Position numbers and translations under genes: made by a program | Assembly: GCA_003152165.1 (NCBI GenBank) | Contig: PLZO01000125.1 | Span: 1,346-65,345 of the forward strand | Length of the DNA stretch: 64,000 nucleotides | Direction: 5' to 3' | Source of the DNA: Chloroflexota bacterium | GTDB lineage: Bacteria > Chloroflexota > Limnocylindria > Limnocylindrales > CSP1-4 | Shown: piece after piece, positions 17,617 through 48,101 of the stretch | Layout of the letters: each line of letters begins with the position of its first letter | Position numbering within the stretch: position 1 is the first letter of the stretch | The notes under the pieces: generated by a model | Database searches by the model: none | Seen by the model: only the letters and a program-made list of their open reading frames with translations | Told to the model about the DNA's origin: nothing

Positions 17617-17685
17617 CGAGCCTGCGTTACCCGGGTGGGCCGCTCCTAGCAGAGCTCGATCGGCATCGCGACGGGATCTCGTGCG

Positions 17686-20377: not shown

Positions 20378-20557
20378 AAGCAAAACGAAAAAAAGCTACA
20401 AAGGAAGAAAGCTATGAATAGGGATTTTGCTTAATCTGAAAGAAGAGTTGGTTGATTCGGAATCGAGTCGGTAACGGCACGTGTCGAACAGGAAGACTGG
20501 AGATAGTAGTGACTGTGGTTTAATTGACCACGGGCAGATCGTTAAGAAGGAGACTCG

Positions 20558-26520: not shown

Positions 26521-26847
26521 ATGGCAGCGTTCAAGACGATCAAAGTCGGCAAACCGCTCAATCTCGATGACCTCAAGAAGAAGTCTACCCCGCGCGGCCA
26601 TCGTGCCAATCCGCGGGACGAGGACCTCCTCCGGCTCGTCAACGAAGTGAGCGTGGGGGCCGCATCGCAGGTGCTGCCGTGGCATTACGACGGCAAGGCC
26701 GCGACAGCTCGCGCAGCCGCGACCAAGGTGATCAAGTCCTCTGAAGCGAAGGTCTACGTCAGTAGCCGGCCGGATATGCCGGGTGTGCTGTTGTTCAGCC
26801 GCGTCCCGCTCACGGGCCGGCAGGGCAAGAACAAGATCCACGGCTGA
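26521..26847 (+). CDS. hypothetical protein
   Basis: RBS tggaggag precedes the ATG (MAAFKTIKVGKPLNLDDLKKK...). The longer ORF-track version has an implausible N-terminus. Confidence 0.45.
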   Translation: MAAFKTIKVGKPLNLDDLKKKSTPRGHRANPRDEDLLRLVNEVSVGAASQVLPWHYDGKAATARAAATKVIKSSEAKVYVSSRPDMPGVLLFSRVPLTGRQGKNKIHG

Positions 26848-27006
26848 GGCCACCTCGATGCCGGCCGGGGGCGGCTACTTCTGCGTTCCGCCCGCTAGCC
26901 ACTCGACGACTTGCCCTCATCGTCGATCGAGCGCAGACTCCCGGGCCCGGCAAAGTTGGCAGCAATGCCCGCCCAGGGCGTCGGCAATACCAGCATCGGG
27001 GCTTGA

Positions 27007-27288
27007 GTGTCCTCTCCGAACCTCCTGTCCAATGGCACGGCCAACCGAGCCGACATTGCATACGCGGCTCATCGCGATGACCTCACGAGCCGGTTGAGCA
27101 GGGAGACCAGGATTCGCCCGGAAAGCGTCGAGCATTTCGTCAGCGCATGGGAGGCGGAAGCGGCCCAACGAGGTCTGGATCGGCTGACCGCTGGATGGTG
27201 GGAGCCGGCGTGGGATTGGATCGTGAACCATCGCTGGATGGCGACCCGGAGCCCGCAAGCCATGACCGACCCGCCGGATCGTCCGTAA
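27007..27288 (+). CDS. hypothetical protein
   Basis: Trp-rich, protein-like composition. It competes with overlapping minus-strand ORFs. Confidence 0.3.
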   Translation: MSSPNLLSNGTANRADIAYAAHRDDLTSRLSRETRIRPESVEHFVSAWEAEAAQRGLDRLTAGWWEPAWDWIVNHRWMATRSPQAMTDPPDRP

Positions 27289-27563
27289 CGATGGCCAACA
27301 CCAACCAGAGAGCCGGGGTGATGATTGCGGTCACCGCCGACGACGATCGCTACTAGCCTGCTCGGCGCAAAGCGATGGACCTGGCAAGGGTCAGCGGACA
27401 GGCCCTCATCCTGTACGACTGGGACGCTCCGACCCTGTTCGAGCTGCACCCAGATGCACGATTTCAGGACGGAGCCCGGTCACGACTCCTCGGCCCGCTC
27501 GAGCTGAGTGTCGCCGCATGAAGGCGCACCGAGCTCGATGCCGTCCAATGTTCTGGAGGAACA

Positions 27564-28616
27564 ATGATGCCCAGCAAGAATAGGGAGCCTGATGCTGGAA
27601 CCCCGACATCAAAGCCGCGCCGGGCGTCAGCCGTCGAGCAACCGTTTGCGGTCAGCAGCCGTCTGTTCGACGCCGACCGGACGGACCGGAGAGTCGAACT
27701 TGGCCCCAAGTCGGTCAAGACGCTGACCGATCGTCAGCTCTTGTGGGTGGATTGCCAAGGCTCCAGTGAGACCGAAGACGACCGCGCGTTTCTCGGATGG
27801 CTACCCTTCGATCGACCGGCGATCGAGCGGATGTGGGCTTTGCCCCCTACTCCGCGGCTCGTCGTCCACGGTGATTACTTTCTCGCGCGACTCCTGGTCC
27901 TGCGTCCCGCGGGTGGTCGCGACGAATCGGTCGTGCTCGACCTCGCGGTCGGCAAGAACGTGGTCCTGACCGCCCACCGCGAGCCGATCGACTTTCTGGT
28001 TGAAATCGACAGCCGAATCACGGCGGACACCAGCCTCGGGGACATCGACTCGGCCGACTTCGCGACCGTCCTGATGGATGGACTCGTCACGAGCTATCTG
28101 GAGTTGAGTGACGAGATCCTCGCTCGCGTTGACGAGCTTGACGCCGATGCCCTCCAAGCGCGCGGCCGGCGCGACCTGCTCGATGACATGGTCGCCTTGC
28201 GCCACCGGATCGCCTTGATCCGGCGGGTTCTCGTTGCCCATCGATCGCTCATGGTCGCGATGGCTGGTGCCGACTTCGAGGCCGTCACCGAGACCGGCGC
28301 AGCACCGCGCTTCGAAGCGACGACAGAGCGGTTCGACGGGGCCATCGGCGCGATCGACGCCGCCCGCGAGGCATTGCTCGGAACGTTCGACATCCACATC
28401 TCGCGGACGGCCCAGCGGACGAACGACGTCATGAGGACGCTGACGATCGTATCGGTCCTCCTCCTGCCCACGGGCGTGATCGCGGGCTTCATGGGCATGA
28501 ACACGAAGCCGCCTTATGCCAATGACAACCCGATCGTCTTCTGGATCGTCGTCGCCTTGATCATCACGATCGCGGCGGCCACCCTCATCATCCTAAGGGC
28601 GCGGAGATGGATCTGA
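27564..28616 (+). CDS. corA: CorA-family magnesium/cobalt transporter
   Basis: C-terminal GFMGMNTK (GMN motif) sits between two TM helices. RBS ggagga precedes the ATG. Confidence 0.85.
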   Translation: MMPSKNREPDAGTPTSKPRRASAVEQPFAVSSRLFDADRTDRRVELGPKSVKTLTDRQLLWVDCQGSSETEDDRAFLGWLPFDRPAIERMWALPPTPRLVVHGDYFLARLLVLRPAGGRDESVVLDLAVGKNVVLTAHREPIDFLVEIDSRITADTSLGDIDSADFATVLMDGLVTSYLELSDEILARVDELDADALQARGRRDLLDDMVALRHRIALIRRVLVAHRSLMVAMAGADFEAVTETGAAPRFEATTERFDGAIGAIDAAREALLGTFDIHISRTAQRTNDVMRTLTIVSVLLLPTGVIAGFMGMNTKPPYANDNPIVFWIVVALIITIAAATLIILRARRWI

Positions 28617-28909
28617 GCTGAGTCGCCCTCGTGGGGCGACTCGAGGCGAGTCGGAGAGGGACCTGAACGTCGTGATCGGGACTTCGAGAGCACCCGTTCT
28701 AAGTCGCTTGGGAACCTGGGTCACCGTGGTCCACCGAAAGGCATTGGTCGGACCGGGACCTGTTGCACATCTGCAATGGACTTCACGTAGCCAAGTGGGA
28801 AGCCGACCCCTCGGTCGCCCCACGATCTGGGCATCGCGTTCTATCTGCGCTGCAGTGACCCCGAAGCCCGGGAAGGGTCGCCGTGGAACGCTTCACGAGG
28901 AGGATACTG

Positions 28910-29401
28910 GTGGACGCTCTGGACATCCTTAAGCAGCAGCACCTCGAAGCCCACGCGGCCTTCGAGGACATCAAGACGGCCCCCGCCAATGGTCGTGGAG
29001 GGGTCTGGGCGGATCTTCGGCCCAAGCTCGAACTCCATGAACAGATCGAAGAGCGGTTCGTCTATGACCCGGTTGCTCACGACGCGGGTTCCAGGGACCC
29101 GGTCCTTGCTCGCTGGGAGCAGGAGCACGAGGACCAGGTCTCCGATGCAGATGCGCTCATGGCCGAGATCGACGCCCTCGACCCGGCCGACGCCCAGTGG
29201 CTCGAGCGGGTCGGCGTGTTGGCTTCGACCTTGGATGAGCACATCGCCCACGAGGAGAACGACATTTGGCCGCGGATCCGCGCCGCTTGGGATGAGGACA
29301 AGCTCGTCCATGCCGGCCGCCAGATGGCCGAAGCCAAATCATCAGTCGAGCGCGGCATTCCGATCGAAGAGGCGGTTGACGCTGGCGAAGGTGCGCAGTA
29401 G
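28910..29401 (+). CDS. hemerythrin-domain protein
   Basis: DALDILKQQH...HEQIEERFVYDP...HIAHEENDIWP carries HHE cation-binding motifs. RBS aggagg lies 5 nt before the GTG at 28910. Confidence 0.7.
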   Translation: MDALDILKQQHLEAHAAFEDIKTAPANGRGGVWADLRPKLELHEQIEERFVYDPVAHDAGSRDPVLARWEQEHEDQVSDADALMAEIDALDPADAQWLERVGVLASTLDEHIAHEENDIWPRIRAAWDEDKLVHAGRQMAEAKSSVERGIPIEEAVDAGEGAQ

Positions 29402-29791
29402 GCCGCAACGTCAACCCCCGTTCGAGAGATCCTTGGAGGTATCGTGCCAAAGTTCACGTGACAGAGGCTCCGGAACGGCGCATCTGCGCCGGACCGACAG
29501 CAAGAAGCTAGTCGATCTGCGGACCAATACGAGTCCCCCGCGGACTTGCCATCGCAGTCGCGTACCCTGAGCCTAACTGGGTCTCGTACTCGAGGACCGG
29601 CGGGTGACCGGCGACGAGGGCAGCGCTGCCCCACGATGCAGTCGTGGGGCATCAGATCCAGTTGGCTGGCCGCTATTACGCGGGCGAGGCGGTTCGTGTC
29701 CCCTCCGTACCGATCTAATGAGCAGACGGGCCCGCCTGCCCGCTCGTCGTTTCCCTGACAATTACTGTCCCGACCTCAAAGGAGCCTCCGC

Positions 29792-30307
29792 ATGACCCCC
29801 ACCGATGTTCCAGGCGACATGGCAGCGACACCCGATGCCAGTGACGTCGTCACTGGGCCCGTCGGCTTCGCCAGTCTTCGAGAGCCGGCCTCGTCGGTCC
29901 CGGCGGGTGCGGATCTGGACCGACTGTCCGCCATCGACGCAGATGCCGCCGGGGCCGAAGGGACCACCCTAGTGCCGACCGGTCCGGCGAGCGAGGGTCC
30001 GCCTGACGAACCGAACCAGGCGATCCGCCAGCTCGAGGGGATCCTCGCGAACCTAACGACGTACGCCAGCCCCGTCCTGCGCGAAATCGCGGCGCGGGCG
30101 GCCGAAGTGGCCGCGAAGGCGGCGGAGGCGGCCGGGCCCGCGGCCCACAAAGCCGCAGGCGTGACGGACGAGGTCGGCGGGCGGCTGGCCGCCAAGGGCC
30201 GTGAGATTGCATCCGACCTACGGCGTGATCGCGGCGCTTCGTTGGGCGATGCCCGCGCTTCGGCAGGCGAACCTTCGAGCGACCCGGGCGGTTCGGCTTC
30301 ATCGTGA
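29792..30307 (+). CDS. hypothetical Ala-rich protein (first gene of a 3-gene overlapping operon)
   Basis: RBS aaaggag precedes the ATG. The stop overlaps the next start (GTGA). Confidence 0.5.
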   Translation: MTPTDVPGDMAATPDASDVVTGPVGFASLREPASSVPAGADLDRLSAIDADAAGAEGTTLVPTGPASEGPPDEPNQAIRQLEGILANLTTYASPVLREIAARAAEVAAKAAEAAGPAAHKAAGVTDEVGGRLAAKGREIASDLRRDRGASLGDARASAGEPSSDPGGSASS

Positions 30308-30732
30308 AGATTGGAAGGCTGGGCCGCGTCGCTCGCATCGCGACGCTGCCCGAGACCCGGACTCTGCTCGTGGCGGCGGTCCGGTCCACGACGCTGCGCA
30401 CCGGGCTGCGGCGCGCCCTGCACGATCCAGCAGGTGTCGTGCGTGTCCTGCGCCCGACAGCTGTCCAAGGCGTCGTCCTGCGCGGCGTCCGCCATCCGGC
30501 GGTCCAGGAGCTTGCCAATGCCGGACTCTTGTTGCTGCCTGGACGCTACATCCCCCTTGGCTGGGCCGCGACCTGGGCCGCCCGACACGTCCGGCGTCGA
30601 CACGGTGGTCCGACGAGCGCCGCATCCGGGCCCGGACGCCCCGCCTCCGGTCAGTCGCGTACGAACGTGACGCCCAAGGTTCGCCACGACACGGCGGACC
30701 ACCTCACCGTCAAAGGAGCCATTGAGAAGTGA
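30304..30732 (+). CDS. hypothetical protein (middle gene of operon)
   Basis: Start and stop overlaps with both neighbours. The product is R-rich, so the call is uncertain. Confidence 0.35.
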   Translation: MKIGRLGRVARIATLPETRTLLVAAVRSTTLRTGLRRALHDPAGVVRVLRPTAVQGVVLRGVRHPAVQELANAGLLLLPGRYIPLGWAATWAARHVRRRHGGPTSAASGPGRPASGQSRTNVTPKVRHDTADHLTVKGAIEK

Positions 30733-31202
30733 ACGCCATCACGATGCTCGAGCGCGACCACGTCAAGGTCAAGGCGCTCTTGACCCGGCTCGATGCCACC
30801 ACCGCCCGAGCAAGGGTGACCCGACGCAACTTGTTCAATCGGATCAAGGCCGAGCTGACCGTCCACGAAACCATCGAGGAGGAGATCTTCTATCCCGCCC
30901 TCAAAGCCCATCCTCGGGCCAAGGACGTCGTCCTCGAGGGGATCGAGGAGCATAACGTCGTAGACAACCTGCTCGGCGAGTTGACTGACCTCTCCCCGGG
31001 CGCGGAATCCTGGGGTGCCAAGGCGACAGTGATGCGCGAGAACGTCGAGCACCACATCGAGGAAGAAGAGACCTCGATGTTCGTCAAGGCGCGCCGGATC
31101 TTCGACCACTCCGAGCTCGAGGCACTCGGTCAGCGGATGGCGGCGCGCAAGATCACGGCCAAGGCCGCAGTTCGGACGATTGCGGCCAAGCGCGAGCGCT
31201 GA
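30729..31202 (+). CDS. hemerythrin-domain protein
   Basis: MLERDHVKVKALL...HETIEEEIFYPAL...EHHIEEEETSMF has hemerythrin HHE-type motifs. Confidence 0.75.
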   Translation: MNAITMLERDHVKVKALLTRLDATTARARVTRRNLFNRIKAELTVHETIEEEIFYPALKAHPRAKDVVLEGIEEHNVVDNLLGELTDLSPGAESWGAKATVMRENVEHHIEEEETSMFVKARRIFDHSELEALGQRMAARKITAKAAVRTIAAKRER

Positions 31203-31437
31203 CGAAGGGGAGCGCACACGAGTAGGTTCCGCATCCAGGAAGGCGCCGAATGTCGTCCCATTTGTGGACCCCAGCCAACCGGCGACTCGGTCAGCGATAG
31301 AAAGTCGCAATGCAGGACGGCCCAGCCCCGGAGGTTCTGCAAGCAATTAACCGACAGAGTTGGCCCGTACCCGTCGGAGGCTGTCCTACCCCTCGAGTGG
31401 GGTCGAGCATCCGCGGACCTAGCTCTCTCAACCAGAG

Positions 31438-31635
31438 GTGAACGAAATGGCTGAGGATCGCACGAAAGGCGCGTTGAACCAGACGAAGGGCGTCATCAAG
31501 GAGAACGTTGGCAAGGTGACGGGAGATCGTTCGACGGAGGCGGCAGGCAAGGTCGATCAGGCCAAGGGCAAACTCCAAGGCAAGATCGGCGACGCGAAGA
31601 CGACGATCCGAAATCAGAAAAATCGCAATCGCTGA
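31438..31635 (+). CDS. CsbD-family stress protein
   Basis: GALNQTKGVIKENVGKVTGDRSTEAAGKVDQAKGKLQGKIGDAK matches the CsbD repeat pattern. Confidence 0.8.
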   Translation: MNEMAEDRTKGALNQTKGVIKENVGKVTGDRSTEAAGKVDQAKGKLQGKIGDAKTTIRNQKNRNR

Positions 31636-31722
31636 GATCGTCAGCTGGGTTGTTTGCCCGGGAGCTCGGCTCCACGCGCCACGCTCCGCGGACCGGGCCC
31701 AGTAACGAGGCGAGATCAGCCA

Positions 31723-32720
31723 TGGTCATCTTCAGTGGGCTGTTGACCGGCTTCGGGCGGCTGATCGGCGCGGTCGCCACGATGACCGTTGCGTGGGCGA
31801 CGATCCTGCTCTTCGGGCGCATCCCCCAATCGAAGCAGACGCTACTGTCGTTCATCACGCTCGGCTCGCTGGCCTGGATCGCGGCTCTCGCCGGCGTCCT
31901 CGTCCCGACGGTCGGCAGCTTCCTTCTGGCCGCCGTCCCGCGAGCGCCCTTCCTCGAGGACCTGTGGCTGCGCTGGATCATGCTCGGGCTGGCTGCCTTC
32001 CTGCCCCTCGCGATCGGATTTGCGACCGTCACGTTCATCACCCCCGAGGATCGCCCGGTGGGCCGCGCCCGCTTTACCCGGCTCCTCCTTGGCTATCCGT
32101 ATGCCGCGGTCTATGCCCTCACGATCATCTCTCTCGCGACCTGGGGCCTCGTCCGCAAGATCTGCAGTCTGCAGCACGGCTGGGACAGTGTGCACATCCC
32201 GATGATCGTCAAGGCCGGCCGGTACGACGCCGTGGTAACCGATCTCGAGTCGGCCCTTCACGAAGCCGACCTCGCCGTCGTTCGGAAGCCCGCGTCGGGC
32301 TGGTTCGAGATCCCGCCCCGACTGCTCGCCGCCGTCGGTGGGAAAGCCGTCAAGGAGTTGATCCCGACCGAGCTCGTCGCGTTCGAGACCGACGGCCTCC
32401 AGATCGTTGTCTATCCCTCGGATGTCGCGCTGCTCGGACGCAAGGAGCTCGTCTCCCAGGCGCGCGCGGCAGTTGCCAGGCGTCTGACGTCCGCTGATGC
32501 CTACCTCACCTCGGCCAAGGAATCGGAGCAGATCGAAGACCGACTCGCGGAGATCGCGCGCAAACCAACGGTCGTCGCGGCGGACTTCGCGCCGATCGAC
32601 GAGCTTCTCACGATGCTCGTCGCGCCCTATGACGAATGGGAGACGCTGTACCGACTCAGGCTGCAGGTCGAACAAGAGCGGCGTCTTCCTGATTCCACCA
32701 CGCCGGCTGACGGCTCGTGA
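31723..32720 (+). CDS. hypothetical membrane protein with C-terminal soluble domain
   Basis: Several TM helices (MVIFSGLLTGFGRLIGAVATMTVAWATILLF...). The start was chosen at the ATG after gaggcgag. Confidence 0.5.
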
Positions 32721-32925
32721 TGTCGCGCGCGACGGTGCACGGCGCTGGAGGTGTCGATTTGGCCTCATCCAAGGCACTGCTATAGAGTTCGCAGCGGGCT
32801 AGGGTCTCGTCGGCAGAGTCGGCAGGCCAGGGCGCAACCGGCAGACGTTGTTGCGCCATTGCAAGGCCGCTGCCGCTCAATGGCGGGGCCACCTGACGTG
32901 ACCGTCCGCTAATCTGTCTGGCACG

Positions 32926-33732
32926 ATGACACGTGAGCGTGACGAGACCCAGCTGACCGGCGGCCCTCCGGGCGCCGACAATCCCCCCGCCGCGCATTCA
33001 CTCGCAGGCCAGTCCTCCGATGTCGCTCTGCTCGTCATCGGGCTCCTGAGCTTCCTGGGCTTGATCCTCCTGACGGTTGCTGTGGCGAGGAGCGTCGTCT
33101 TCCCATTCGATCAACCGCTGCTGACCCTACTCCACGGTTGGGACGGCGCGCCCATCATCTGGAATACGATCTCGCAGGGCGCAAATATCCCGCTGATTGT
33201 GATCGGGTTGGCGTTCGTGCTCTGGCTCTTCTTCACGAACCGCCGCCGCGAAGCGCTCGTGGTGGTCCTGATGCTGGTCGCGGTGACTGCCGGCAGCGAG
33301 GGCGTCAAGCAACTCGTCGGGCGACCACGGCCCTCGGGCAACGGCGACGGGATCCCCGGAGTCGTCTACAGCTACCCGTCAGGACACGTGCTCGAGGTCC
33401 TGACGATCCTGGGGAGCATCGCCCTCCGAGCTTGGCGGAGCTCGAGGCGGTTGGTGCTGCGCGTCGCCCTCGTCGCCCTCGTCGCTCTCGACGTCGCCCT
33501 CGTCGCCATTGCCCGGGTTGTGCTCGCCGAGCACTACCCAACGGATATCCTCGCTGGGTTCCTGGGAGGGATCGGCGCGCTCACCGTCTATGCTTGGATG
33601 ACGCGACCCGGCGGTTGGGCGCATCAGACGGGGGCTGATTCGGATGAGACGCGGAACTCGCGCCAACGATCGGAAGTGACGCCTCCACGCGCTCGGTCAG
33701 CCGACGATCTCGCGGGCGGCGCTGCTGCATGA
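32926..33732 (+). CDS. PAP2-family phosphatase (membrane)
   Basis: KQLVGRPRP, SYPSGH and AEHYPTDILAG match the three PAP2 motifs. Confidence 0.75.
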   Translation: MTRERDETQLTGGPPGADNPPAAHSLAGQSSDVALLVIGLLSFLGLILLTVAVARSVVFPFDQPLLTLLHGWDGAPIIWNTISQGANIPLIVIGLAFVLWLFFTNRRREALVVVLMLVAVTAGSEGVKQLVGRPRPSGNGDGIPGVVYSYPSGHVLEVLTILGSIALRAWRSSRRLVLRVALVALVALDVALVAIARVVLAEHYPTDILAGFLGGIGALTVYAWMTRPGGWAHQTGADSDETRNSRQRSEVTPPRARSADDLAGGAAA

Positions 33733-34169
33733 CCAACCCGCAAGAGAAGCGCTCGCCCGACATCGAGTCTACTCGCGACCCTGCCCCGCCGAGCGAACGG
33801 GTACCCAATGGTGAGGCTGGTCCCCTGGGCAAGGTCGACCCAGTCAATCCGATGGGATCTATCGCTTCCCCGGTGCACGAGGGCGGCTTTCCGGAGTCGA
33901 TTTCGAGGTCCGCTGGGCGACGGGAGAGCGATCGGCCATTTCGGGTTACGGCGGGTGCTGGGCGACGCCAACGTGCGCCCAGGCGCTCGGTTGCCAGCAG
34001 CGATGGCCCTGAGACGGCTGGTCAGGCTGCGGGTTCTGGGGTCGGCGGTTCACGCTCGAACTGGCGCGAGGTTGCAATGCTTGGGCCCTGCACGGGTGGC
34101 CGGCGGCGGCATGGGATATGGCATCGTTACCCGGAGAGCCGAACGCGCCACCCAATGTAGGAGTCGACC

Positions 34170-34451
34170 ATGACCGAGCAACGTAGAACTGTCACCACCG
34201 AGACGACGACTGGAGCGCCCGCGAGCACGACCGAGACGGTCGAGCGGGGGATCCATCACGGTGACGAAGAGGCTGGCGGCGCGGTCGAAGGCGCGGTCGG
34301 GGGCGCTGTCGTCGGGGCCGTCGTCGGGGGACCGGTCGGGGCCGTCGTCGGTGGCGCGATCGGCGCGGCGTCGGGTGCGACGGCCGGTGCCCTTGACGAC
34401 AAGCGCAAGGACGAAACGGTTGTCGTCAAGAAGGAAGAGAAGACCTGGTAG
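34170..34451 (+). CDS. glycine-zipper small protein
   Basis: RBS aggag precedes the ATG. The product contains GAVEGAVGGAVVGAVVGGPVGAVVGGAIGAASGATAGA. Confidence 0.5.
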   Translation: MTEQRRTVTTETTTGAPASTTETVERGIHHGDEEAGGAVEGAVGGAVVGAVVGGPVGAVVGGAIGAASGATAGALDDKRKDETVVVKKEEKTW

Positions 34452-34542
34452 CTCGGACCAAATCAAGACCGAGTTACCCGTTGCGCTGACCCGCGGCGGG
34501 TACGCCCCTCATTCGTGACGGATCAGGAGACGTTGAAATCCC

Positions 34543-34626
34543 GTGAGTGTCGAGACTATCGTCATCGTCGTTGTGATCGTCCTTGTCGTGCTCTTGATCC
34601 TCGGGCGAGGCAGGCTGCGCGGCTAG
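34543..34626 (+). CDS. possible 27-aa hydrophobic micro-protein (VSVETIVIVVVIVLVVLLILGRGRLRG)
   Basis: RBS caggaga lies 12 nt upstream of the GTG. The ORF is below the 60-aa cutoff of the ORF track. Confidence 0.25.
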   Translation: MSVETIVIVVVIVLVVLLILGRGRLRG

Positions 34627-34718
34627 GTCGCCTCAGGCCTGCTTCTGGGAAAGCTCGTCTCGCTTGAGGCCGGTGGTATAACCAGCGCTCGGAAGGCGGA
34701 TCGCGGAGGCGTTGGGCC

Positions 34719-34910
34719 ATGAGCCACGACAAGCGTCCCAGGGTGGTCGTCATTAATCGTGGCGGTGATCACGGTTGCATCATCACGATCATCCTGTTGA
34801 TCATTGCATGGCCCTTGGCCATCCTCTATTGGCTTGCACGGCTTCTTGTCTGGACCTTGCGTACTATCCTCGACTGGCTAACCCTGGGCTTCCTGCGAAG
34901 GCGACGTTAA
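34719..34910 (+). CDS. possible small membrane protein (63 aa)
   Basis: A strongly hydrophobic core CIITIILLIIAWPLAILYWLARLLVW is flanked by basic residues. Confidence 0.3.
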   Translation: MSHDKRPRVVVINRGGDHGCIITIILLIIAWPLAILYWLARLLVWTLRTILDWLTLGFLRRRR

Positions 34911-35271
34911 GCGGCGCGGACGCGTGTTCGTGCCCCACGCTTGACCTGATATGGTCCAGCGCTCGCGGCCTCGCATGTCGATGCCAGTGTTGCGTCCTGA
35001 CACCACATTCTCGCGCCTTTGTCAACAGACGTGTGCCATTGCGATCTCGGGACCACTCCGACCCTCTAGGACAGCCTGAGACGCGCGTTTATTTTCGACC
35101 CTAATGAATTGCCCGCGAAGAAATTACGGGCGCTGCTGGACCGTCCATGGTGGGCAGACCGGGTTCGGGGTCGAACCTAACGGGGTCCGAACGAGAGCCC
35201 CCGTTGATCGCATCACCCTTCCTCCGGCAAACGAATTGTCCCGCGGCAATTTGAGCGCCCTACTAACCGAG

Positions 35272-35523
35272 GTGGGTCGCCGTCGGCGCGTCGCTCCATG
35301 GGTGAGCATTCCTCTGGCGTTGACCGTGGCGATATCCGGTTGCTCGGGCGCGGCGGCCCCAGCACCGTCACCGACGCCAACATCGACTCCGACGCCGACT
35401 GTATCAGCGGCCCCGACCCCGACGCCGACGGCATCACCGACTAGCGACGACGTCAAGATCGAGTCGATCATCAAGGACGGAGTGGCCCAAGTGGTGACCG
35501 ATGCGACCGCAATCCGACCATAG
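35272..35523 (+). CDS. small lipoprotein with Pro/Thr-rich linker
   Basis: GTG start gives MGRRRRVAPWVSIPLALTVAISGCSG (basic n-region, lipobox) followed by a PT repeat tract. Confidence 0.5.
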   Translation: MGRRRRVAPWVSIPLALTVAISGCSGAAAPAPSPTPTSTPTPTVSAAPTPTPTASPTSDDVKIESIIKDGVAQVVTDATAIRP

Positions 35524-35668
35524 CGCGCTTCGGGAAAGGGGTGAGTAGCTTGGGGGGCGCGCGCCGATAAGACCCGGTTTCAGAACGAGCGCGGAGCCCT
35601 TGGGCGAAGGGATCGGTGGTGGTTTCCTGTCATCATTGGCATGAGCCAGCACGTTCCAAGGAGAGATC

Positions 35669-36307
35669 GTGGCGCCCGACCGACTGCTCGCCTTCGCACT
35701 CCTGTCATTGGTTCTCATCGTCGTGCCCGGCCCGAGCGTGCTGTTCGTCATCGGCCGCGCGCTCTCCGTCGGCCGGCGGGCCGCGCTGGCGACCGTCGTC
35801 GGCAATGAGGCCGGCGAGTACGTGCAAGCCGCGGGCGTGGCCGGCGGCCTCGGCGTCATCCTCGCCCAGTCGGAACTCGTCTTCACCATCGTGAAGCTGG
35901 CCGGTGCGGGCTACTTGGCATATCTCGGGCTCCAGGCGATCCGCAAGCGCCGGTCTGTGCTGCTGCTCAATCGCTCCACCCTGGCATACCGCGACGGTCG
36001 GGCACTGCGCGACGGGTTCGTCGTGGGGCTCACGAATCCCAAGACCACGGTGTTCTTTGCCGCGGTGCTGCCGCAGTTCGTGACGAGGGCAGGGTCAGCC
36101 GAGCCGGTGCCCGTTCAGATGCTGTTCCTCGGCCTGGTGTTCGTGGCCATCGCGCTCGTGTCCGACAGCATCTGGGCCCTCGTGGCGAGCCAGGCTCGGG
36201 CGTGGTTCGTGCGATCACCGCGTCGCCTCGAGACCCTGAGCGCGGCCGGCGGCGTCGTGATGATCGGACTTGCCGCCCGCCTCGCGGTAGCGAACCGGAC
36301 CGACTGA
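35669..36307 (+). CDS. LysE/RhtB-family amino-acid exporter
   Basis: Six-TM pattern with an N-terminus LLAFALLSLVLIVVPGPSVLFVIGRAL typical of the LysE family. Confidence 0.8.
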   Translation: MAPDRLLAFALLSLVLIVVPGPSVLFVIGRALSVGRRAALATVVGNEAGEYVQAAGVAGGLGVILAQSELVFTIVKLAGAGYLAYLGLQAIRKRRSVLLLNRSTLAYRDGRALRDGFVVGLTNPKTTVFFAAVLPQFVTRAGSAEPVPVQMLFLGLVFVAIALVSDSIWALVASQARAWFVRSPRRLETLSAAGGVVMIGLAARLAVANRTD

Positions 36308-36488: not shown

Positions 36489-36803
36489 TCCGGCGCTCCT
36501 ACGTGCTGTCAGCCCCGGTGATTCAAACGATCGGCTCAGCACCCGCTGGATGGTCGAGATCTGCCAGCCCGAGCGACCAGATACGGTCGGGATGCCTTCG
36601 TCGGCCAGACGCAGGACGATGTCGCGCAGGGTCAACCCTGCAGCGCGCCATTCCACGATCTGGCTCGTGATCTGAGCCGGGATCGAGGTTGGTCGGCCTA
36701 GCCGGACCCCGGCTGCCTTCCTAGCCGCAACGGCATCCTTTGTCTGTCCGCGATTCTTCTGCCAGATGCATATGCGAATGGGGGCTAAGCGGCAGCCGGG
36801 CGA
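36489..36803 (-). pseudogene. serine recombinase/resolvase C-terminal fragment (no start codon, catalytic domain missing)
   Basis: Hand translation of the minus strand gives ...IWQKNRGQTKDAVAARKAAGVRLGRPTSIPAQITSQIVEWRAAGLTLRDIVLRLADEGIPTVSGRSGWQISTIQRVLSRS*. The frame is bounded upstream by a stop at 36804-36806 and contains no ATG. Absent from the ORF track. Confidence 0.55.
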
Positions 36804-38064
36804 CTACCATCAGGTCGACCAAATCCCTCCCCCGGGGCTACTTGCGGTGACCGAGCCCTTTGCTTCTGGCGAGGACCAAGCGGAACGCGAAGGCGGATTC
36901 GCGGAGATCCGCCGTGTTGACCGAACGTACGCGTCCAAGGGTTTTGACTTGGCCGGGCATGTGGGAGTGCGTGCCCGCTTCATCCGCAAAGTCTTCGTCC
37001 CCGAATTCGACACTGAGGTCGATATCGACGGCGAAGGTACTCAGTGGCTCGTCTACACCTCCTCGAAAGGTCGTGTGCAGGTTCGACTGATCGTCTCCCG
37101 CGAACCGGGCCACGTCAGCGAAATCATCATCCAGCGCATCAATGCAACGGTTCATGGAGCGCGTGCGGACAACCTCGTCACGCTGACGGGCGAGGACGCC
37201 AGGCGGTTCATCGAGCTCATCAAGAACCTGGACTACATCCCTATCGAGGGCGCTGAAGGAATTCGGCTCGACGACGCCCTCGTCCGGGACCTTATGGCTT
37301 CTCCCGAGTCCGTATCGCAGATTTACGACAGAGACCCGGATGTATTTCGAAACCTCATCGCGGACGACGTGGCCGCGCGCGACGTCATCGCTCTATCACG
37401 AAGACGGAGCGAGGTGGAACGCTTCAAACGTCTGCTAGACGAGCGGGACTATTTTGACTCTGAGGTTGCGCTGACGCCACATAAGCGGCCCGAGGACGTA
37501 TGGCAAGGGTTCTTCGAGACGAACCCTTGGATACTCGGTACGGGCCTAAGTGGTCAGCTATTCACGTCCTGGGATGAGGACAAATTGGAACAGATCGTAG
37601 GCGGGGCGTCGATCGCGAATGTCGGCAAGCGGGCCGATGCGCTCATGCGCACGTCGGGTGTCGTGCGTTGGATGACCTTTGCAGAATTCAAGACCCACCT
37701 GACGCCTCTGCAGGCCCCCAAATACCGCCCAGGGACATGGCCACCTTCGGCCGAACTTGTGGGAGGCATCGCTCAGGCTCAGGCAACCGTCTGGCGCGCC
37801 ATGCAGGAAGTCGGCGCGGTCTTGCGCGGCACCGCTGCGGATGGATCAGAGATGACGGACGAGATGACATTCCTAACCCATCCGCGCTCGTACCTGGTTA
37901 TTGGCCAACTCGGAGAGCTTCTCGGGAAAGGTGGTGGACCGCACATGGATAAGATCCGGTCCTTCGAACTCTTCCGAAGGAGCGTCAGCGAACCTGAGAT
38001 CGTCACGTTCGACGAGCTGCTTGCCCGGGCCGAATGGGTCGTCGACACGGAACTAGGTGTCTAG
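36766..38064 (+). CDS. putative PD-(D/E)xK nuclease resembling the Shedu/DUF4263 anti-phage family
   Basis: C-terminal region ...FETNPWILGTGLSGQLF...GKRADALMRTSGVVRWMTFAEFK has an NPW(L/I)xG block and D-x16-E-x-K nuclease spacing that I recall from DUF4263. A/T-ending codon usage (gat, att, aaa, ggt) is atypical for this genome. The gene is flanked by recombinase remnants. The start may be internal (GTG near 36847). Confidence 0.5.
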   Translation: MHMRMGAKRQPGDYHQVDQIPPPGLLAVTEPFASGEDQAEREGGFAEIRRVDRTYASKGFDLAGHVGVRARFIRKVFVPEFDTEVDIDGEGTQWLVYTSSKGRVQVRLIVSREPGHVSEIIIQRINATVHGARADNLVTLTGEDARRFIELIKNLDYIPIEGAEGIRLDDALVRDLMASPESVSQIYDRDPDVFRNLIADDVAARDVIALSRRRSEVERFKRLLDERDYFDSEVALTPHKRPEDVWQGFFETNPWILGTGLSGQLFTSWDEDKLEQIVGGASIANVGKRADALMRTSGVVRWMTFAEFKTHLTPLQAPKYRPGTWPPSAELVGGIAQAQATVWRAMQEVGAVLRGTAADGSEMTDEMTFLTHPRSYLVIGQLGELLGKGGGPHMDKIRSFELFRRSVSEPEIVTFDELLARAEWVVDTELGV

Positions 38065-38370: not shown

Positions 38371-39336
38371 TCAGATTCCAATCGCGGCGGCTACATCGGG
38401 CCAAATCCGGTCAGCCTCGCCCTCCAGCCGCCTGAGATAGACGGTGGTCACGGCCAGCGAGCTGTGATCGAGAAACGAGCTAACGGCCTCGATCGACGCC
38501 CCAGCGTCCCGGCGGAGCTTCGCCGCCGTGTGCCGAAGTACGTGCAGCCCGGTCGGTGCCAACCCAGCCAGCCCCAGATACCGGCGGAACCTTGCGTAAA
38601 AAGACCCGCTTGTGATACCGAGGATGCTGACCGCCGCCTGCCAGAGCGACTCTTGCGGGTCCATCGTGGCCAAATCCTTGCCAGAGTCGGCCAGCGTCGC
38701 CCGGATCACCTCGTAGGCAGGTCGTGGAAGTTCACGCCGGCCGGTCTTGCCACCCTTGCCGCGATAGGAGTAGAGGGCCATCTCGCCTTCGAAGGTCAGG
38801 TCGGCGGCTCGTAGACCGAGCACCTCGGCTCGTCGTCGCCCTGTAAGGATCAAGACCAAGAGGATCGCCCGGTCGCGTCGACCTCGAACCGAGTCCGGAA
38901 TCACGGCCAGCAGTCGCCGAACTTCGTCGGCCGAATAGCCCCGAGCCGGTGCTTGAACCGTTCGAGGCCGCTCGACGGCATCGCACGGGTTCGAAACGAC
39001 GAGACCCATCCGGATCAAGAAGCGGTAGAACGAGCTCAGGCAGGCGATCCTGGCGCCGATGGTGGCTCCTGAGGGTGGCCGGCCCGATAGGCCGATTCCA
39101 TGGCCATAGGCCAGCACCTCGGCTGGCTTGACCCGGTCTGGGGTCGTGCCGGCAAAGAATGGCCAGAGCATCCGGCCGTAGCTCTCAACGGTCCTCTTCG
39201 AGCCCGACCGGTTGCCCTTCTCGACCAAGAACCCATACAGGGCCTGATCCCAGACCGATGGATCGCCGGATTGCAGGGCAGGGAGCGCCTGGTGGGGCAT
39301 CGTGGACCTCCTGAATTGGTGGATCACATCCATCAC
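38371..39336 (-). CDS. tyrosine-type recombinase/integrase (XerC/D-like)
   Basis: N-terminal SAM-like core-binding region and a C-terminal catalytic domain with R...HVLRHTAAK...TTVYLRR (R-H-R-Y pattern). Confidence 0.85.
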   Translation of the reverse strand: MMDVIHQFRRSTMPHQALPALQSGDPSVWDQALYGFLVEKGNRSGSKRTVESYGRMLWPFFAGTTPDRVKPAEVLAYGHGIGLSGRPPSGATIGARIACLSSFYRFLIRMGLVVSNPCDAVERPRTVQAPARGYSADEVRRLLAVIPDSVRGRRDRAILLVLILTGRRRAEVLGLRAADLTFEGEMALYSYRGKGGKTGRRELPRPAYEVIRATLADSGKDLATMDPQESLWQAAVSILGITSGSFYARFRRYLGLAGLAPTGLHVLRHTAAKLRRDAGASIEAVSSFLDHSSLAVTTVYLRRLEGEADRIWPDVAAAIGI

Positions 39337-39595: not shown

Positions 39596-40360
39596 TCAAA
39601 CCCCGATGGTTGGCCCGATGCCCGATCGACGACACCGATGGCTGAGTGCGCTGTACGCGGCGACATACCAGGCGCCCTGCTTCAAACCGTCCCAGAAGTA
39701 GGCGCTCAACCGGCGGTCGGCCAGCGCTTCGCCGCAGCGGGCACAGTGGTTGTGGTTCGCGCACCTGCAGTCGACCCGGATGACCCGCGGCCCGGGATAG
39801 CGGGTCCCGGGCTCGCCGATCTGCAGTAGATCGCCGGCGAGCTCGCCGCAGGTTCGGCACGCGGCGAGGCCCGGTCCGGAGCCGCCTGGATCTCCAGCCG
39901 CCAATCGGGCGAGGTCCTCAGGCGATGCGACCCGGCCACCCTCGAGATTGTCCCCGACGATGTAGCCGCTCCCACGATGGCGTTCGGCGAAGAGGCGCAG
40001 GTCGATCCGCCGTCCGGCCATTTCCGGCGTTTCCGGGACGTCCACCGGCAGGAGGATCCGCTCGATCACGGGCATCCCGCTCGGCACGATCCTTGACGCA
40101 GTCGGTGCCCCAGTCTCGTCACGATCGCGGTCGACGTCGACGTCGACGTAGAGGGCATCGGCCGGCCCCAGGACGAGACAAGTCGACATCTGGTTGGTGG
40201 ATGCCTGCCGCTCGAGGAGCTCGAGCAGACGGTCGCGCGACCAGTCGGCCGGGACGATCGCAAGATGACGGAGCGCGCACGCCCCGATCCGGGTGACCAG
40301 GTACGGGTAGCCGGTGAAGGCAGGCAGGCTGCCATAGCCAGCCCAGGCGTAGGTGAGCAT
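39596..40360 (-). CDS. hypothetical protein with C-terminal Cys-rich (zinc-binding-like) region
   Basis: CRTCGE...CRCANHNHCARCGE cluster. The 254-aa product has protein-like composition. Confidence 0.5.
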   Translation of the reverse strand: MLTYAWAGYGSLPAFTGYPYLVTRIGACALRHLAIVPADWSRDRLLELLERQASTNQMSTCLVLGPADALYVDVDVDRDRDETGAPTASRIVPSGMPVIERILLPVDVPETPEMAGRRIDLRLFAERHRGSGYIVGDNLEGGRVASPEDLARLAAGDPGGSGPGLAACRTCGELAGDLLQIGEPGTRYPGPRVIRVDCRCANHNHCARCGEALADRRLSAYFWDGLKQGAWYVAAYSALSHRCRRSGIGPTIGV

Positions 40361-41752: not shown

Positions 41753-42073
41753 ATGAAGCAATACGGCGACGGTGTCGGCTACCGCAACCCGCACGAGTTC
41801 GAGGGCGACGACATCTCGCAGCAGTACCTTCCCGATGCCCTCGTGGAGCAGCGGTACTACGTGCCGCGCGACCAGGGCGACGAAGCGACGGTCAGCGCAC
41901 GGATGGCTGTATTAGATAGTGCTCGGCAAGCTGTTCGGGAAGCTGGTCGCCAGCGTCGGAAGCAGGATCGACCTGGGGTCGACCCGATGGCGTCGATGAG
42001 CGACGGGCTGAACGCCCATAACGAGAGTCGGAAGCGACTGGCCGAGACGCAGAAGCGCGACGCTGGAACTTGA
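41753..42073 (+). CDS. hypothetical protein
   Basis: The 106-aa product has diverse composition (MKQYGDGVGYRNPHEFEGDDISQQYL...). Confidence 0.45.
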   Translation: MKQYGDGVGYRNPHEFEGDDISQQYLPDALVEQRYYVPRDQGDEATVSARMAVLDSARQAVREAGRQRRKQDRPGVDPMASMSDGLNAHNESRKRLAETQKRDAGT

Positions 42074-42299: not shown

Positions 42300-43466
42300 T
42301 CAGCGATTGCCCTTCGCGCGGTTGTGCGTCACGCAGAGCATCTCGCAGTTCTCTTTCGACGTAGACCCACCGTTGCTCCACGCGGCGACATGGTCGGCGT
42401 CCATCTCGGCGAGCCCCCAGATCTTGACCTTGTTCGAGGCGTTGCCAACGGCACAGAGCGGGCAGTTCGAGACGCTCGTCGCTTGAGCTTTCGCCGTCTG
42501 CTCCTCGTAGACGACACGCTTGGTAACCTCGTCGAAGAGGCGCACTTGGAGGAGCTTGGTGTCTGTCTCGCCGCCGAGGATGAACTCGAAGATCCCCTTA
42601 CGATCTTTCACGAACGGGTCGGCATAGAGCGCACGGACTCGTTCGGCCACCTTGTCCGCGTCATAGGGGTGTCGGTGGTAGGTCTCGTAGAGGCGGCCCC
42701 ACTCCAGTCCGCGCATCTCCTTCTCGACGCTCGTGAAGACGGTCGCAACCCAGTCGATGACGGCGTTGAAGTAGGCCTTGACCTCGCTGATGTCGCGGTC
42801 GTTGCGATGGCGGCTCATGTAATCAGCAACGTTGACCTTGCTCACCCACTCGAGAGCCCGCTCCCAGAAGTCTTGGCGGTTCGCCACGCCCCGGACGTAG
42901 GCGCTCCACTTCTGGACATTCGCGTTCTGGCTGTTGCTGAACTCGTGCCTGCCGGCGGTGACGAAGGGTCCCGAGTAAACGGCGTTTAGCAGCTCTTGAT
43001 CGTTTAGCGGCACTCCGGCGGTGTTGATCGTGCGGAACCACTCCTTGATCTCACTCTCGGTGCCACTGCACTCGTAGACGAGGATCTCGGAGTCGAGAAT
43101 CTTCTGCTGCTTATCGGCGGCTAGACCGCCAAAGTACTGTTCCATCCCGAGCTCGTCCTTGACGGCGAACTTGCCCGTGACGTAGCGCCCGAAGCTCGTA
43201 ATGCGCTGCTGCCCATCTAGTACCTCGTGCCTGTCGTCGCCGACGTGGTTGAAATAGATCAAGCCGAGCGGATATCCAGCCAGAAGCGACTTGACGACGG
43301 CAATCTCCAAGCGGCCGCCCTTCTCCGCGTAGATGTAGTTGCGCTGGTACTCGGGTTGGATGGTCAGCCTGCCCGCGAGCCCGAACAGGCCGCGCCCCTC
43401 CAGCGCGTTATAGACGAACCCATCACAGATCTGGCGAACGGTGTATTGCTTAAGCTCTGTCTTCAT
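42300..43466 (-). CDS. DUF262 (ParB/Srx-like, DGQQR motif) fused to HNH endonuclease; GmrSD/SspE-like nuclease
   Basis: N-terminal [11 protein letters not shown]...[10 protein letters not shown] is the DUF262 hallmark. C-terminal CPLC...[30 protein letters not shown] is an HNH domain with Zn cysteines. The start overlaps the upstream MTase stop (ATGA). Confidence 0.85.
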
Positions 43467-44668
43467 CCGACGGGCCTCCGATGCCCGATAAAGACTCTCT
43501 GGTAGGCCGACTGTATGACTCGCCCATCCTTGTTGATGAAGTAGTTCTTCTTCCCGTCATTTCCGGCCAGGTTGGCGTTCTCGTTCGTCTTTCCACCAGA
43601 GGAGCCAGTCTTGCTGCCGTCTTGACGCACTTCCCAGTAGTCGTCGTATTTGACAGTATCGGGAACGGCATCATGACATCCGCGCTGCGTAGCTCCCAAG
43701 ACCTCGAACTGCTCGGGTGAGTACTTATCGAGGAAACTGATTGGGACGCCCATCACGCCTTCGTAGTCGCTCGGGATCGCGTCGGTGAATGGGACCTCGA
43801 TGGCGTCGTAGTTGTCGTATTTCATGTAGCCCGCTTTGCCCCTGATCTCCTTGTGCCTGCTGAACCGCAGGTTGTCGCTCATGGTCATAAGTGGGAGGGG
43901 TTGGTGGCGACGTCCGTGGTCGAGGTTCGTGAACCAGCAGGAGTTGCCAAGCCTCGTGTAATCGCCAACGTACCCGAGGCGAGCGGCCTTTTCTTTATCC
44001 GCAGCGGCGACCACCGCGCCCGGTGGAACGCCGAAGACCATGTCACTGCCGTTCCCGGTCGCACCGAGCCACATACGATCGCTCTTGATCAGCGGGAACA
44101 CCTCTTTATAGGTGATGGCGTTCATGTTGCCGATGATCACGAATTTCTTGTGAGCTTTGACCGTCCACGCCAGGAAATCGCGGAACATAGAGAACGGCGG
44201 GTTGGTGATGATGACGTCCGCCTCGTCACGGAGCCTTGTCACCTCTTCACTTAGGAAGTCGCCGTCGCCCGCGAGGTACTCCCACTCGAGGTCATTGACA
44301 TTCATCCGGCCGTCACCGGACACGTCTCGGCTGAGGGTGAAGGTCTTCCCGTTGACCGTAGTCTTTTCAGGATCGAACAGCGGGCTACTTGATTCCCAGA
44401 GCGTCGGCTGCCTGTGGTACATCGCTGCGCTGGGCGCGTAGCTCGTGCTGATGAGCTTCGCGAGTCCGAGGCGCTCGAAATTCTGTGCGAAGTACTTCGT
44501 GAAGTTGCTCCACTCGGGGTCGTCGCATGGTAGGAGCACCGCCTTACCGCGGAACACGTCCGGGTCGAACTCGAGATAGGCGTTCATTTCCTTCTCGATG
44601 TCCGCGTATTGCGTGTAGAACTCGTCGTTCTTCGCGTTCTTGGCGTTCCAGAGGTTGTTGTTCGGCAT
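43463..44668 (-). CDS. N6-adenine DNA methyltransferase, EcoRI-methylase family
   Basis: [60 protein letters not shown] matches the EcoRI-methylase family N-terminus. VIITNPPFS is the NPPF catalytic motif. The ORF-track N-terminal extension was rejected. Confidence 0.85.
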
Positions 44669-44870
44669 CAGTCGGCCCTCGCTTCGTAGTGACTTGGTGC
44701 AGGGCGAAGAGGCGTAGTCGCACGCGACCAACGCTCGCAGGGGCGCGTCGGCCCAGGCGCTCTGAGAGGACCTTCACGATGTCGCCGTAGTAGAGGGTAT
44801 TGAGATCGTTCGCCATACACAGAGCATACGAGGCCGCGTCGCCCCTGACTGGACTGGTCGGAAGGGAGGC

Positions 44871-45539
44871 TCAGGGCGGCCCAGTCTTGGCCGCGAGCGC
44901 AGCCTTCCTCGCGGCCGTCCGAGCCGGCTCGGTGAAATAGAAGCCGAACAAGGTGGCGAGTGTGTCGAGGGTCCACTCGGCCTCTCCGGGCTCCACCTCA
45001 AGGTAGTCGCCGGTCGCGGTCGACTTGTTCGGGTGCGCGGCCATGTTCCCGATGACGCGCAGTTCGTGGAGCGACTCAGTGCAGTAGCCCGGTAACCCGG
45101 CGTTGGTCAGTGCCCACTCGATCTCCTTGAAGAGGTCCGACTTCGGGGCCTTCGCCTGCTCGCCGAGCAGGTGCTGGAGGCAGCGGCGGGACAGGGCGGC
45201 GCTCGCGCGCGGCGAGTCCTGGAGGATCAGCGCGGCCTCCGAGTAGAGCCCGCGGTACGGCTCGGGGACCTCGGGCGGGAGCGGGGGCCGCGACGAGACG
45301 CGGGGCAGGAGCACGAATTCGTTCAGCATGAGCTGGGTGGCGGTGCCAGGCTCCGGGCCGTCTTCGTACCCGAGGTCGGAGTGGGTCAGGATGACGCCCG
45401 CGCACTTCGGACAGGCGACTGCCTCGACCTGATGGTTCTCGCCGCCCTGGTCGCTGTAGTACATCCGGTTCCCGCTGCCGTGAATGCCTCGTGTCGTCGG
45501 GACCGGGTGCATCTCGATGGAGCAGAACGGGCAAATCAT
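44871..45539 (-). CDS. zinc-ribbon + DUF4145-like domain protein
   Basis: N-terminal CPFC...CPKC zinc ribbon. The C-terminal AALSRRCLQHLLGE...LHELRVIGNMAAHPN resembles DUF4145. Confidence 0.65.
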   Translation of the reverse strand: MICPFCSIEMHPVPTTRGIHGSGNRMYYSDQGGENHQVEAVACPKCAGVILTHSDLGYEDGPEPGTATQLMLNEFVLLPRVSSRPPLPPEVPEPYRGLYSEAALILQDSPRASAALSRRCLQHLLGEQAKAPKSDLFKEIEWALTNAGLPGYCTESLHELRVIGNMAAHPNKSTATGDYLEVEPGEAEWTLDTLATLFGFYFTEPARTAARKAALAAKTGPP

Positions 45540-47276: not shown

Positions 47277-48101
47277 CTACTTGAAGAACGGTCGGAGGCG
47301 CTCGAATACGCTGAGTCGGATCAGGCCGTAGTTCGCTTGCAGTACGCCCGGGAGGGTCCGCGCCAGCGTGGTCGTTCCCTCTTCATCCAAGGTTACTTGG
47401 AAGGTGAATACGGCCTGGAAATCTGTCTTCTGGCCTGCCGCGAGCGTTATGCCGCCCACGACCATGCCCTCTTCGATGGGAGTGCCGGTAACAATCCAGG
47501 TATCGGTCGGGCGCTCGTCGAAATAGAAGGCCGTGCCAAGGGGCAACATCCCGACCACGACCGGCGATCGATGCTTGTCCCGATTCCAACGTCGGTCCAA
47601 AAGGTTTAGCCAGTGGGCGCCGCGCGTCGCCTTCGGACTGTGGTAAGGCTGTGCCGCGTCGATGATGTCGAGGGCGCCCTGCGGTATGCCCGCAAAACGA
47701 TCCAGGGCGATTTTCCTGAAGCTAGCCTCGGTTTGGCACACGGGGAAAGCCAGCCGCCAATACGGCGTGCGATAATCGCTCACGAGCGCCCACGCGATGT
47801 TGTCGAGCGTGGCGCGAAGTTCGTGGATACACTCCCCGACGATGAAACCGAGGTCCGCTGGGATTGGGCGGCGCACATGAGCGCGGTACAGGTATGTATG
47901 TCCGTCGCCCTGCGGCTCGGGAACCACGTCGTACAAGCCGCCGTCCGCCTTCAGCCCTTGGACTTCCGTCTCTACTTGCTCGATACGACGACGCGCCCAC
48001 TCGAGCCGGGCTTCGATGCGCTCGCTTGGCCTTTCATGAGTGCGCCCTCCATGCATGACCGCGGACCCGTGGCCGGTGGACGGTCGTGCTTCATCGCCCA
48101 T
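47277..48101 (-). CDS. hypothetical protein (274 aa)
   Basis: Protein-like composition. No motif I can assign with confidence (a possible R-x5-H at RWNRDKH). Confidence 0.5.
   Translation of the reverse strand: MGDEARPSTGHGSAVMHGGRTHERPSERIEARLEWARRRIEQVETEVQGLKADGGLYDVVPEPQGDGHTYLYRAHVRRPIPADLGFIVGECIHELRATLDNIAWALVSDYRTPYWRLAFPVCQTEASFRKIALDRFAGIPQGALDIIDAAQPYHSPKATRGAHWLNLLDRRWNRDKHRSPVVVGMLPLGTAFYFDERPTDTWIVTGTPIEEGMVVGGITLAAGQKTDFQAVFTFQVTLDEEGTTTLARTLPGVLQANYGLIRLSVFERLRPFFK

Follow-up and report, generated by a model that had tools for sequence, protein, structure and literature searches.

The 64,000-nucleotide stretch of a Chloroflexota genome examined here (GenBank contig PLZO01000125.1, positions 1,346 to 65,345; hereafter the window) carries on its forward strand an open reading frame (ORF), at 36766-38064 (432 aa, with the stop codon included in this extent), that very likely encodes an intact type I Shedu immune nuclease (SduA), that is, a single-gene anti-phage system that was acquired horizontally as cargo of a defense and mobile-element island. 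The family of the protein, its intact active site, the similarity of its fold to solved Shedu structures, its single-gene organization, its foreign composition, and the island context were all established in the analysis. An ORF of 432 aa with these boundaries had been claimed from the sequence alone in an earlier annotation of the stretch (hereafter the original prediction), together with the proposal that it encodes a PD-(D/E)xK nuclease of the Shedu (DUF4263) type, and it is present as described.

The assignment to Shedu is carried above all by profile searches. The C-terminal nuclease domain (aa 242-419; 37489-38022, + strand) matches Pfam PF14082 (SduA_C, formerly DUF4263) with an E-value (E) of 2.1e-25 and a score of 90.2 bits, relative to a gathering cutoff of 27, and the match spans profile positions 3-159 of 159. 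The same domain is delimited by sequence matches to the PDB entries 8ti8 and 8ti9 and by Foldseek. The best of the PADLOC SduA models, PDLC00394, is matched over nearly its full length (E = 1.6e-118; aa 47-428 against positions 9-385 of 392), and eleven further SduA models in PADLOC match the protein as well, for a total of twelve. The original prediction had named PF14082 as the search on which the proposal should be judged, and the significance of that match, taken with the near-full-length PADLOC match, supports the proposed nuclease type. Among the NCBIfam models there is no specific match, the sole one returned being meaningless (E = 0.11), and the PHROGs gave a single weak match to a family of unknown function, across the nuclease domain only.

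The PD-(D/E)xK active site is intact, as judged from alignments. In B. cereus SduA, the Shedu active site comprises E204 in motif I, D249 in motif II, E264 and K266 in motif III, and Q295 in motif IV (Gu et al., bioRxiv 10.1101/2023.08.10.552793). In a pairwise HMMER alignment of the single window sequence to chain 8ti8 (E = 1.4e-6), the numbering of which is offset by two from the native B. cereus numbering, these motifs stand opposite E243 (37492-37494; this and the following codons are on the + strand), D291 (37636-37638), E307 and K309 of the sequence E307-F-K309 (37684-37692), and Q337 (37774-37776), respectively. Chain 8ti9, that of the published E264A dead mutant, has an alanine at the position equivalent to E307. 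Across 22 homologues none of the five residues varies, nor do W255 and G258 in the NPWILG block, and a profile built from these homologues matches B. cereus SduA (8ti8) with E = 1e-18 and E. coli SduA (8ps4) with E = 0.004, in both cases in the nuclease domain only. The original prediction had described the core as an NPW(L/I)xG block followed by D-x16-E-x-K. Both sequence blocks are indeed present, as NPWILG (aa 253-258) and KRADAL...AEFK (aa 288-309), whereas the spacing needs correction, since D291 and E307 are 15 residues apart and the motif is D-x15-E-x-K. Furthermore, neither frameshifts nor internal stops interrupt the frame, which is full-length and collinear with that of its homologues, and the window protein has kept each of the more than 80 positions that are invariant in the 22-sequence alignment, the five catalytic residues among them.

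Structure prediction leads to the same family. When the full-length AlphaFold2 model was compared with the PDB using Foldseek, the top eight matches were all Shedu chains (8ti8, 8ti9, 8ps5, and 8ps4; E = 7e-8 to 6e-4, probability 1.00), and the B. cereus chains 8ti8 and 8ti9 were found at E = 7e-8 to 4e-6 with target-normalized template modeling (TM) scores of 0.56-0.67. The original prediction had suggested modeling as a check of the nuclease fold, and the best PDB matches are the Shedu structures from B. cereus and E. coli. The low-confidence stretch of the model at aa 268-300, on which D291 lies, is the position of the motif II loop. The B. cereus counterpart of this loop is mobile and, in the inactive tetramer, keeps the catalytic aspartate sequestered (Gu et al.).

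The DUF4263 domain is preceded by a predicted β-rich N-terminal domain and a helical linker, which is the type I architecture. In an AlphaFold model of the N-terminal part alone (aa 28-247, 112 sequences), the mean predicted local distance difference test score (pLDDT) is 79.5 and that of the core exceeds 90; at aa ~38-157 the chain forms one helix, then about seven strands in antiparallel arrangement, and finally a long helix, and short helices come after these at aa ~170-235. On this basis, we place the putative sensor or regulatory domain at aa 28-157 (36847-37236, + strand) and the linker, with its several short helices, at aa ~170-235 (37273-37470, + strand). The N-terminal region is conserved in more than 100 homologues and is covered by PDLC00394 from model position 9, and the residues of this domain that are invariant in the 22-homologue alignment include R49, T54, Y55, S57, F60, R71, K75, W94, R103, Q105, and R124. 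The original prediction had found the N-terminal ~250 aa to be unlike anything recognized. As a description of an orphan sequence this does not hold, since the region belongs to a conserved subfamily that PADLOC has modeled. Neither by sequence nor by Foldseek does it resemble one of the two solved Shedu N-terminal domains.

Among the solved structures, Shedu of B. cereus B4264 (SduA; 8TI8, 8TI9, and 8TIA; the "Type 1A" of Gu et al.) is the best match in both sequence and fold. It has the same DUF4263 nuclease domain with motifs I-IV all kept, the same order of N-terminal domain, helical linker, and nuclease, and it is likewise encoded by a single gene. However, identity to the window protein in the nuclease domain is only ~20%, and there is no detectable sequence similarity in the N-terminal region. 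The N-terminal domain of Type 1A Shedu proteins has an sPC4/Whirly fold (Gu et al.), and the window domain, at ~130 aa and with about seven strands, is larger than its B. cereus counterpart. The E. coli SduA (8PS4 and 8PS5) is also a type I protein with a C-terminal DUF4263 domain that is matched by both Foldseek and profile within the nuclease domain, yet this relation is weaker than that to B. cereus, with the profile match (E = 0.004) confined to the last ~115 aa (8ps4 chain residues 294-407).

The oligomerization, autoinhibition, type of trigger, and anti-phage activity that we propose for the window protein are inferred from work on these two proteins. Full-length B. cereus Shedu is an autoinhibited tetramer in which D249 lies 20 Å from the active site, and removal of the N-terminal domain and linker leaves a toxic, active protein (Gu et al.). 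In E. coli SduA, the N-terminal domain forms a clamp that senses DNA ends, and expression of the nuclease domain by itself is toxic (Loeff et al., bioRxiv 10.1101/2023.08.10.552762). By analogy, we hypothesize that the window protein would assemble through its DUF4263 nuclease domains into a homotetramer that the N-terminal module would hold in an autoinhibited state. An infection-specific nucleic-acid feature would be recognized by the N-terminal domain, this recognition would free the motif II loop and allow D291 to enter the active site, and phage DNA might then be nicked or cleaved without sequence specificity.

The window protein is not isolated. A protein search at E <= 1e-5 gave 419 proteins, including an identical protein that is on record from NCBI and ENA assemblies with a start at ATG 36778 (428 aa) and also in the 432-aa version. 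The nearest nonidentical relative has 70% identity, and the remaining relatives show 47-70% identity across ~91% of the query, are typically ~406 aa long, and all have PF14082. Several of them, from Amycolatopsis keratiniphila, Nonomuraea bangladeshensis, and a Saccharimonadales metagenome-assembled genome, bear the NCBI name "Shedu immune nuclease family protein". Scanning one genome of each species yielded 140 loci that encode such a protein, overwhelmingly from Actinomycetota; the genera and orders represented include Amycolatopsis, Nocardia, Kribbella, Cellulomonas, Pseudonocardia, Corynebacterium, Solirubrobacterales, and Acidimicrobiales, and the nonactinobacterial loci are a few from Chloroflexota and one from Corallococcus. 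By these sequence comparisons, the window protein belongs to an already catalogued Shedu subfamily, modeled by PADLOC in 2023 as PDLC00394 and recognized by NCBI. The members of this subfamily in Amycolatopsis, Nonomuraea, and others are collinear with the window protein from end to end, N-terminal domain included, at the identities given above, and we see no substantive difference between them and the window copy other than a 27-codon 5′ extension of the latter that is possibly spurious. The window gene is one more intact Shedu in a family of thousands, a routine case that can be annotated automatically, and it matters little beyond its correct annotation.

The relatives are of modest interest for the way in which sensor domains are exchanged. 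Many Nocardia and Nonomuraea genomes match the window protein only over aa ~170-428; at the loci concerned (L049, L050, L053, L061, L062, L066-L068, L073, L075-L079, L083, and L084 of our homologue set), it starts between aa ~116 and ~187, at 45-60% identity. For example, the 641-aa Shedu of Nocardia transvalensis (L077, 4804-6729) has 60% identity to the window protein over the last 240 aa, that is, the distal linker and the nuclease, whereas its own N-terminal region of ~400 aa is unrelated and has no Pfam match. The sequence that is shared with Shedu proteins bearing other N-terminal domains begins inside the linker, at ~aa 187. This pattern points to swapping of sensor domains with an exchange point in the linker near that residue. 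The Nocardia proteins, closely related but with another N-terminus, would be a clean natural example of it. Gu et al., who surveyed 79 families of N-terminal domains across Shedu, likewise view Shedu as a shared nuclease core under the control of interchangeable N-terminal domains.

The gene also stands alone. Within the window there is no co-oriented neighbor beside sduA, and the five homologue neighborhoods examined have no partner gene in common. Instead, the surroundings differ from locus to locus: modules of EcoRII-C, Dcm methylase, and Vsr genes in L002, L003, and L086, Eco57I, an SNF2/PLD protein, and a DEAD helicase in L087, DUF488 genes in L085, and ordinary metabolic genes in the Amycolatopsis locus L004. 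In three of the five neighborhoods, the homologue lies beside an EcoRII/Dcm/Vsr or Eco57I/SNF2 module. Given that the neighbors vary and that none is conserved, we conclude that this is a single-gene system without an obligatory partner, in keeping with the definition of Shedu as acting through one protein. KELShedu of E. coli pairs a Shedu-type nuclease with a separate partner protein that binds double-stranded DNA (Sci Adv 2025, PMC12577705). A two-component arrangement of this kind was considered for the window protein and rejected, as there is neither a co-oriented partner in the window nor a conserved neighbor among the homologue loci. We also note that the homologue adjoins an EcoRII-C endonuclease and a Dcm-type cytosine methylase in L002 (11925-14085), L003 (3695-7238), and L086 (99-2950), with Vsr also present in the latter two, and that this adjacency recurs although the three loci come from unrelated assemblies.

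The composition of sduA is foreign to its surroundings. The guanine-cytosine (GC) content is ~69-70% in the core genes of the window and falls to 59% at 37-38 kb. Of 37 window genes scored with 15 flanking core genes as the reference, sduA had both the lowest GC content at third codon positions (GC3; 0.695, as compared with 0.78-0.86 in the core) and the lowest codon adaptation index (CAI; 0.512, as compared with 0.61-0.74). The visibly A/T-leaning codon usage noted in the original prediction is therefore real and unlike that of the core genes, and we conclude that sduA was acquired horizontally as cargo of the island. The 10 kb upstream of the island (26000-36300) also have a GC content below that of the core (0.63-0.66), so the compositionally atypical zone is wider than the defense genes; this segment encodes CorA, two hemerythrins, PAP2, a glycine-zipper protein, and LysE (35669-36307).

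On either side, sduA is flanked by remains or genes of site-specific recombinases, as had been claimed. Upstream, on the opposite strand, lies a start-less serine-recombinase fragment (36489-36740, end approximate, - strand; "Recombinase" PF07508, E = 3.3e-6) that retains only the "Recombinase" domain and helix-turn-helix part, lacks the catalytic Resolvase domain, and has in-frame stops further upstream. An origin by copying from the intact serine recombinase at 13895-15373 was considered and rejected, as the two have no similarity. Downstream, and convergent with sduA, there is an apparently intact tyrosine integrase (38371-39336, - strand; PF00589, E = 3.4e-18; PHROG_1 integrase, E = 2.3e-35). 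A 254-aa ORF (39596-40360, - strand) that lies directly upstream of the integrase, in the same orientation, matches no Pfam, PADLOC, or PHROG family except for a subthreshold match to a C4 zinc finger; possibly it serves the integrase module as an accessory gene.

Beyond the integrase, the low-GC island continues with further debris and defense genes. The C-terminal fragment of a RarA/MgsA AAA+ ATPase (41753-42073, + strand; PF12002 positions 113-164 of 167) is gene debris inside the island, with no recognizable remainder of the gene upstream of 41753 in any frame. Next comes a type II restriction-modification pair (42300-44731, - strand), composed of a DUF262/GmrSD_N and HNH endonuclease (42300-43466) that matches nearly the whole of the PADLOC model REase_II (E = 3.6e-82) and an EcoRI-like adenine methylase (43463-44731; PADLOC MTase_II, E = 1.8e-84) whose gene overlaps that of the endonuclease by 4 nt. 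The DUF262/GmrSD_N and HNH architecture of this endonuclease is more usual in type IV enzymes. A DUF4145 protein with an N-terminal zinc ribbon (44871-45539, - strand) matches PADLOC PD-T7-4 (E = 2.2e-16); its GC3 (0.90) and CAI (0.746) are the highest of all genes scored, and its neighbors are low in GC. A second N6/N4 DNA methyltransferase (48995-50359, - strand; N6_N4_Mtase; PADLOC MTase_II, E = 2.7e-66) has no recognized endonuclease partner, and near it a 274-aa ORF (47277-48101, - strand) belongs to no Pfam or PADLOC family. At the far edge of the low-GC island lies an IS481-family transposase (52068-53018, + strand), beyond which comes an aminotransferase (53015-54658). A search for direct and inverted repeats over 35.5-53.5 kb found only short, imperfect two-copy matches at chance level and no flanking repeats resembling attachment (att) sites. 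The recombinase debris, the integrase, the restriction-modification pair, the PD-T7-4-like gene, the second methylase, and the transposase together bear out the typical defense-island context asserted in the original prediction, and sduA is situated at the edge of a genuine defense island in a mobile-element setting. The locus is useful in marking a compact island of this type, with Shedu, a type II restriction-modification pair, a PD-T7-4-like gene, and an orphan methylase.

The coding sequence itself is probably somewhat shorter than the maximal ORF. Database gene callers start sduA at ATG 36778 (428 aa) or at ATG 36766 (432 aa). The close homologues, mostly of ~406 aa, begin with MTEPFAS or MTNPLAS, and these N-termini align at GTG 36847 of the window, which is codon 28; accordingly, a 405-aa product encoded by 36847-38064 (+ strand) is the more likely one, to judge from homologue N-termini. 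The first 34 residues of the long ORF have pLDDT values below 50 in the full-length model. A start at GTG 36847 would also remove the apparent overlap of sduA with the recombinase fragment. Around sduA, a scan for intrinsic terminators found one terminator-like site, inside the ORF and at the level expected from shuffled sequence.

Several observations weigh against our proposal that sduA encodes a working type I Shedu nuclease, or at least against its details. The full-length model (22 sequences) is of moderate quality (pLDDT 67.6; predicted TM score 0.48), and the N-terminal domain is matched by neither solved Shedu N-terminal domain in profile searches; its separate model, compared with the PDB and BFVD using Foldseek, gave nothing significant (best E ~0.03). 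Weak Foldseek matches of this domain to CapZ, SSB, and p32-like proteins were not accepted as evidence. In the HMMER alignment, the tyrosines Y312 and Y315 on helix αC of the B. cereus octamer interface fall opposite R354 and A357 of the window protein, and the B. cereus loop lysines K238 and K241 fall opposite A281 and A284. As these residues are not conserved, it cannot be taken for granted that the window protein is activated through the octamer contacts seen in B. cereus, and Gu et al. left the octamer step open for other Shedu families. The start codon is ambiguous, with no convincing Shine-Dalgarno sequence or ribosome-binding site before any candidate start, and a scan for σ70 promoters around the gene found none, a result that is uninformative for a high-GC organism. 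Finally, the literature consulted gave no experimental evidence for the window protein or any member of its subfamily.

One alternative concerns what the protein would sense, namely that it works like E. coli SduA, the only Shedu with a demonstrated trigger, with paired N-terminal domains forming a clamp for free double-stranded DNA ends. E. coli SduA is indeed among the Foldseek (8ps5, E = 3.7e-5) and profile matches, and the lack of conservation of the B. cereus octamer-interface residues is in line with such a mechanism. Nevertheless, we consider this rather unlikely: the profile match is limited to the last ~115 residues of the nuclease domain, the whole-chain TM score is ~0.3, and the nuclease core is much closer to that of B. 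cereus Shedu (E = 1e-18, as compared with 4e-3). Moreover, the E. coli clamp (EcSduA residues 1-145) is not recognizable by profile in the window protein, and the model of the N-terminal domain alone retrieved neither 8ps4 nor 8ps5. We tentatively raise a further possibility, somewhat less doubtful than the clamp, that the ~130-aa N-terminal domain of this mainly actinobacterial subfamily is a sensor fold apart from both the Whirly-like domain of B. cereus and the DNA-end clamp of E. coli. In that case, its infection signal would be a different one, and the Nocardia proteins, with an unrelated N-terminus of ~400 aa on a chassis of 60% identity, would be a record of recent sensor swapping. With an N-terminal domain for which no solved structure gave a match, the subfamily is a reasonable representative for asking what Shedu proteins other than those of E. 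coli and Bacillus sense.

Two other readings question not the trigger but whether the gene serves phage defense at all. Under the first, sduA is Shedu by descent but is silent or decaying cargo that has lost its expression or function, as have the gene fragments nearby. The recombinase fragment upstream and the RarA/MgsA fragment at 41753-42073 are debris of just this kind, the region immediately upstream of the conserved start is rearranged, and no promoter-like site was found there. We regard decay as improbable, however, given a full-length collinear frame that has no frameshift or stop and that retains all of the invariant positions and catalytic residues described above. Under the second reading, which seems to us more improbable still, the protein is a PD-(D/E)xK nuclease that serves a mobile element in recombination, homing, or the exclusion of rival elements. 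The position of sduA directly between two site-specific recombinase genes would fit such a role, and Loeff et al. suggest that Shedu may take part in competition among mobile elements. Against this, the homologues examined are not linked to integrases and instead adjoin restriction-modification modules or ordinary genes, and the domain family is defined by anti-phage activity. We strongly favor the view that sduA encodes an intact Shedu immune nuclease that reached this genome as island cargo.

Elsewhere in the window, a tRNA-Arg(tct) gene (13861-13936) is overlapped at its 3′ end by the large serine recombinase mentioned above, which is intact and 492 aa in length (13895-15373, - strand; PF00239 and PF07508). 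This gene is followed by ORFs without a recognized family, including one for an 821-aa protein at 17686-20151, and at 20-21 kb the GC content dips to 0.573 with an AT skew of 0.255. The segment at 13861-21000 is probably a separate element integrated at the tRNA gene.

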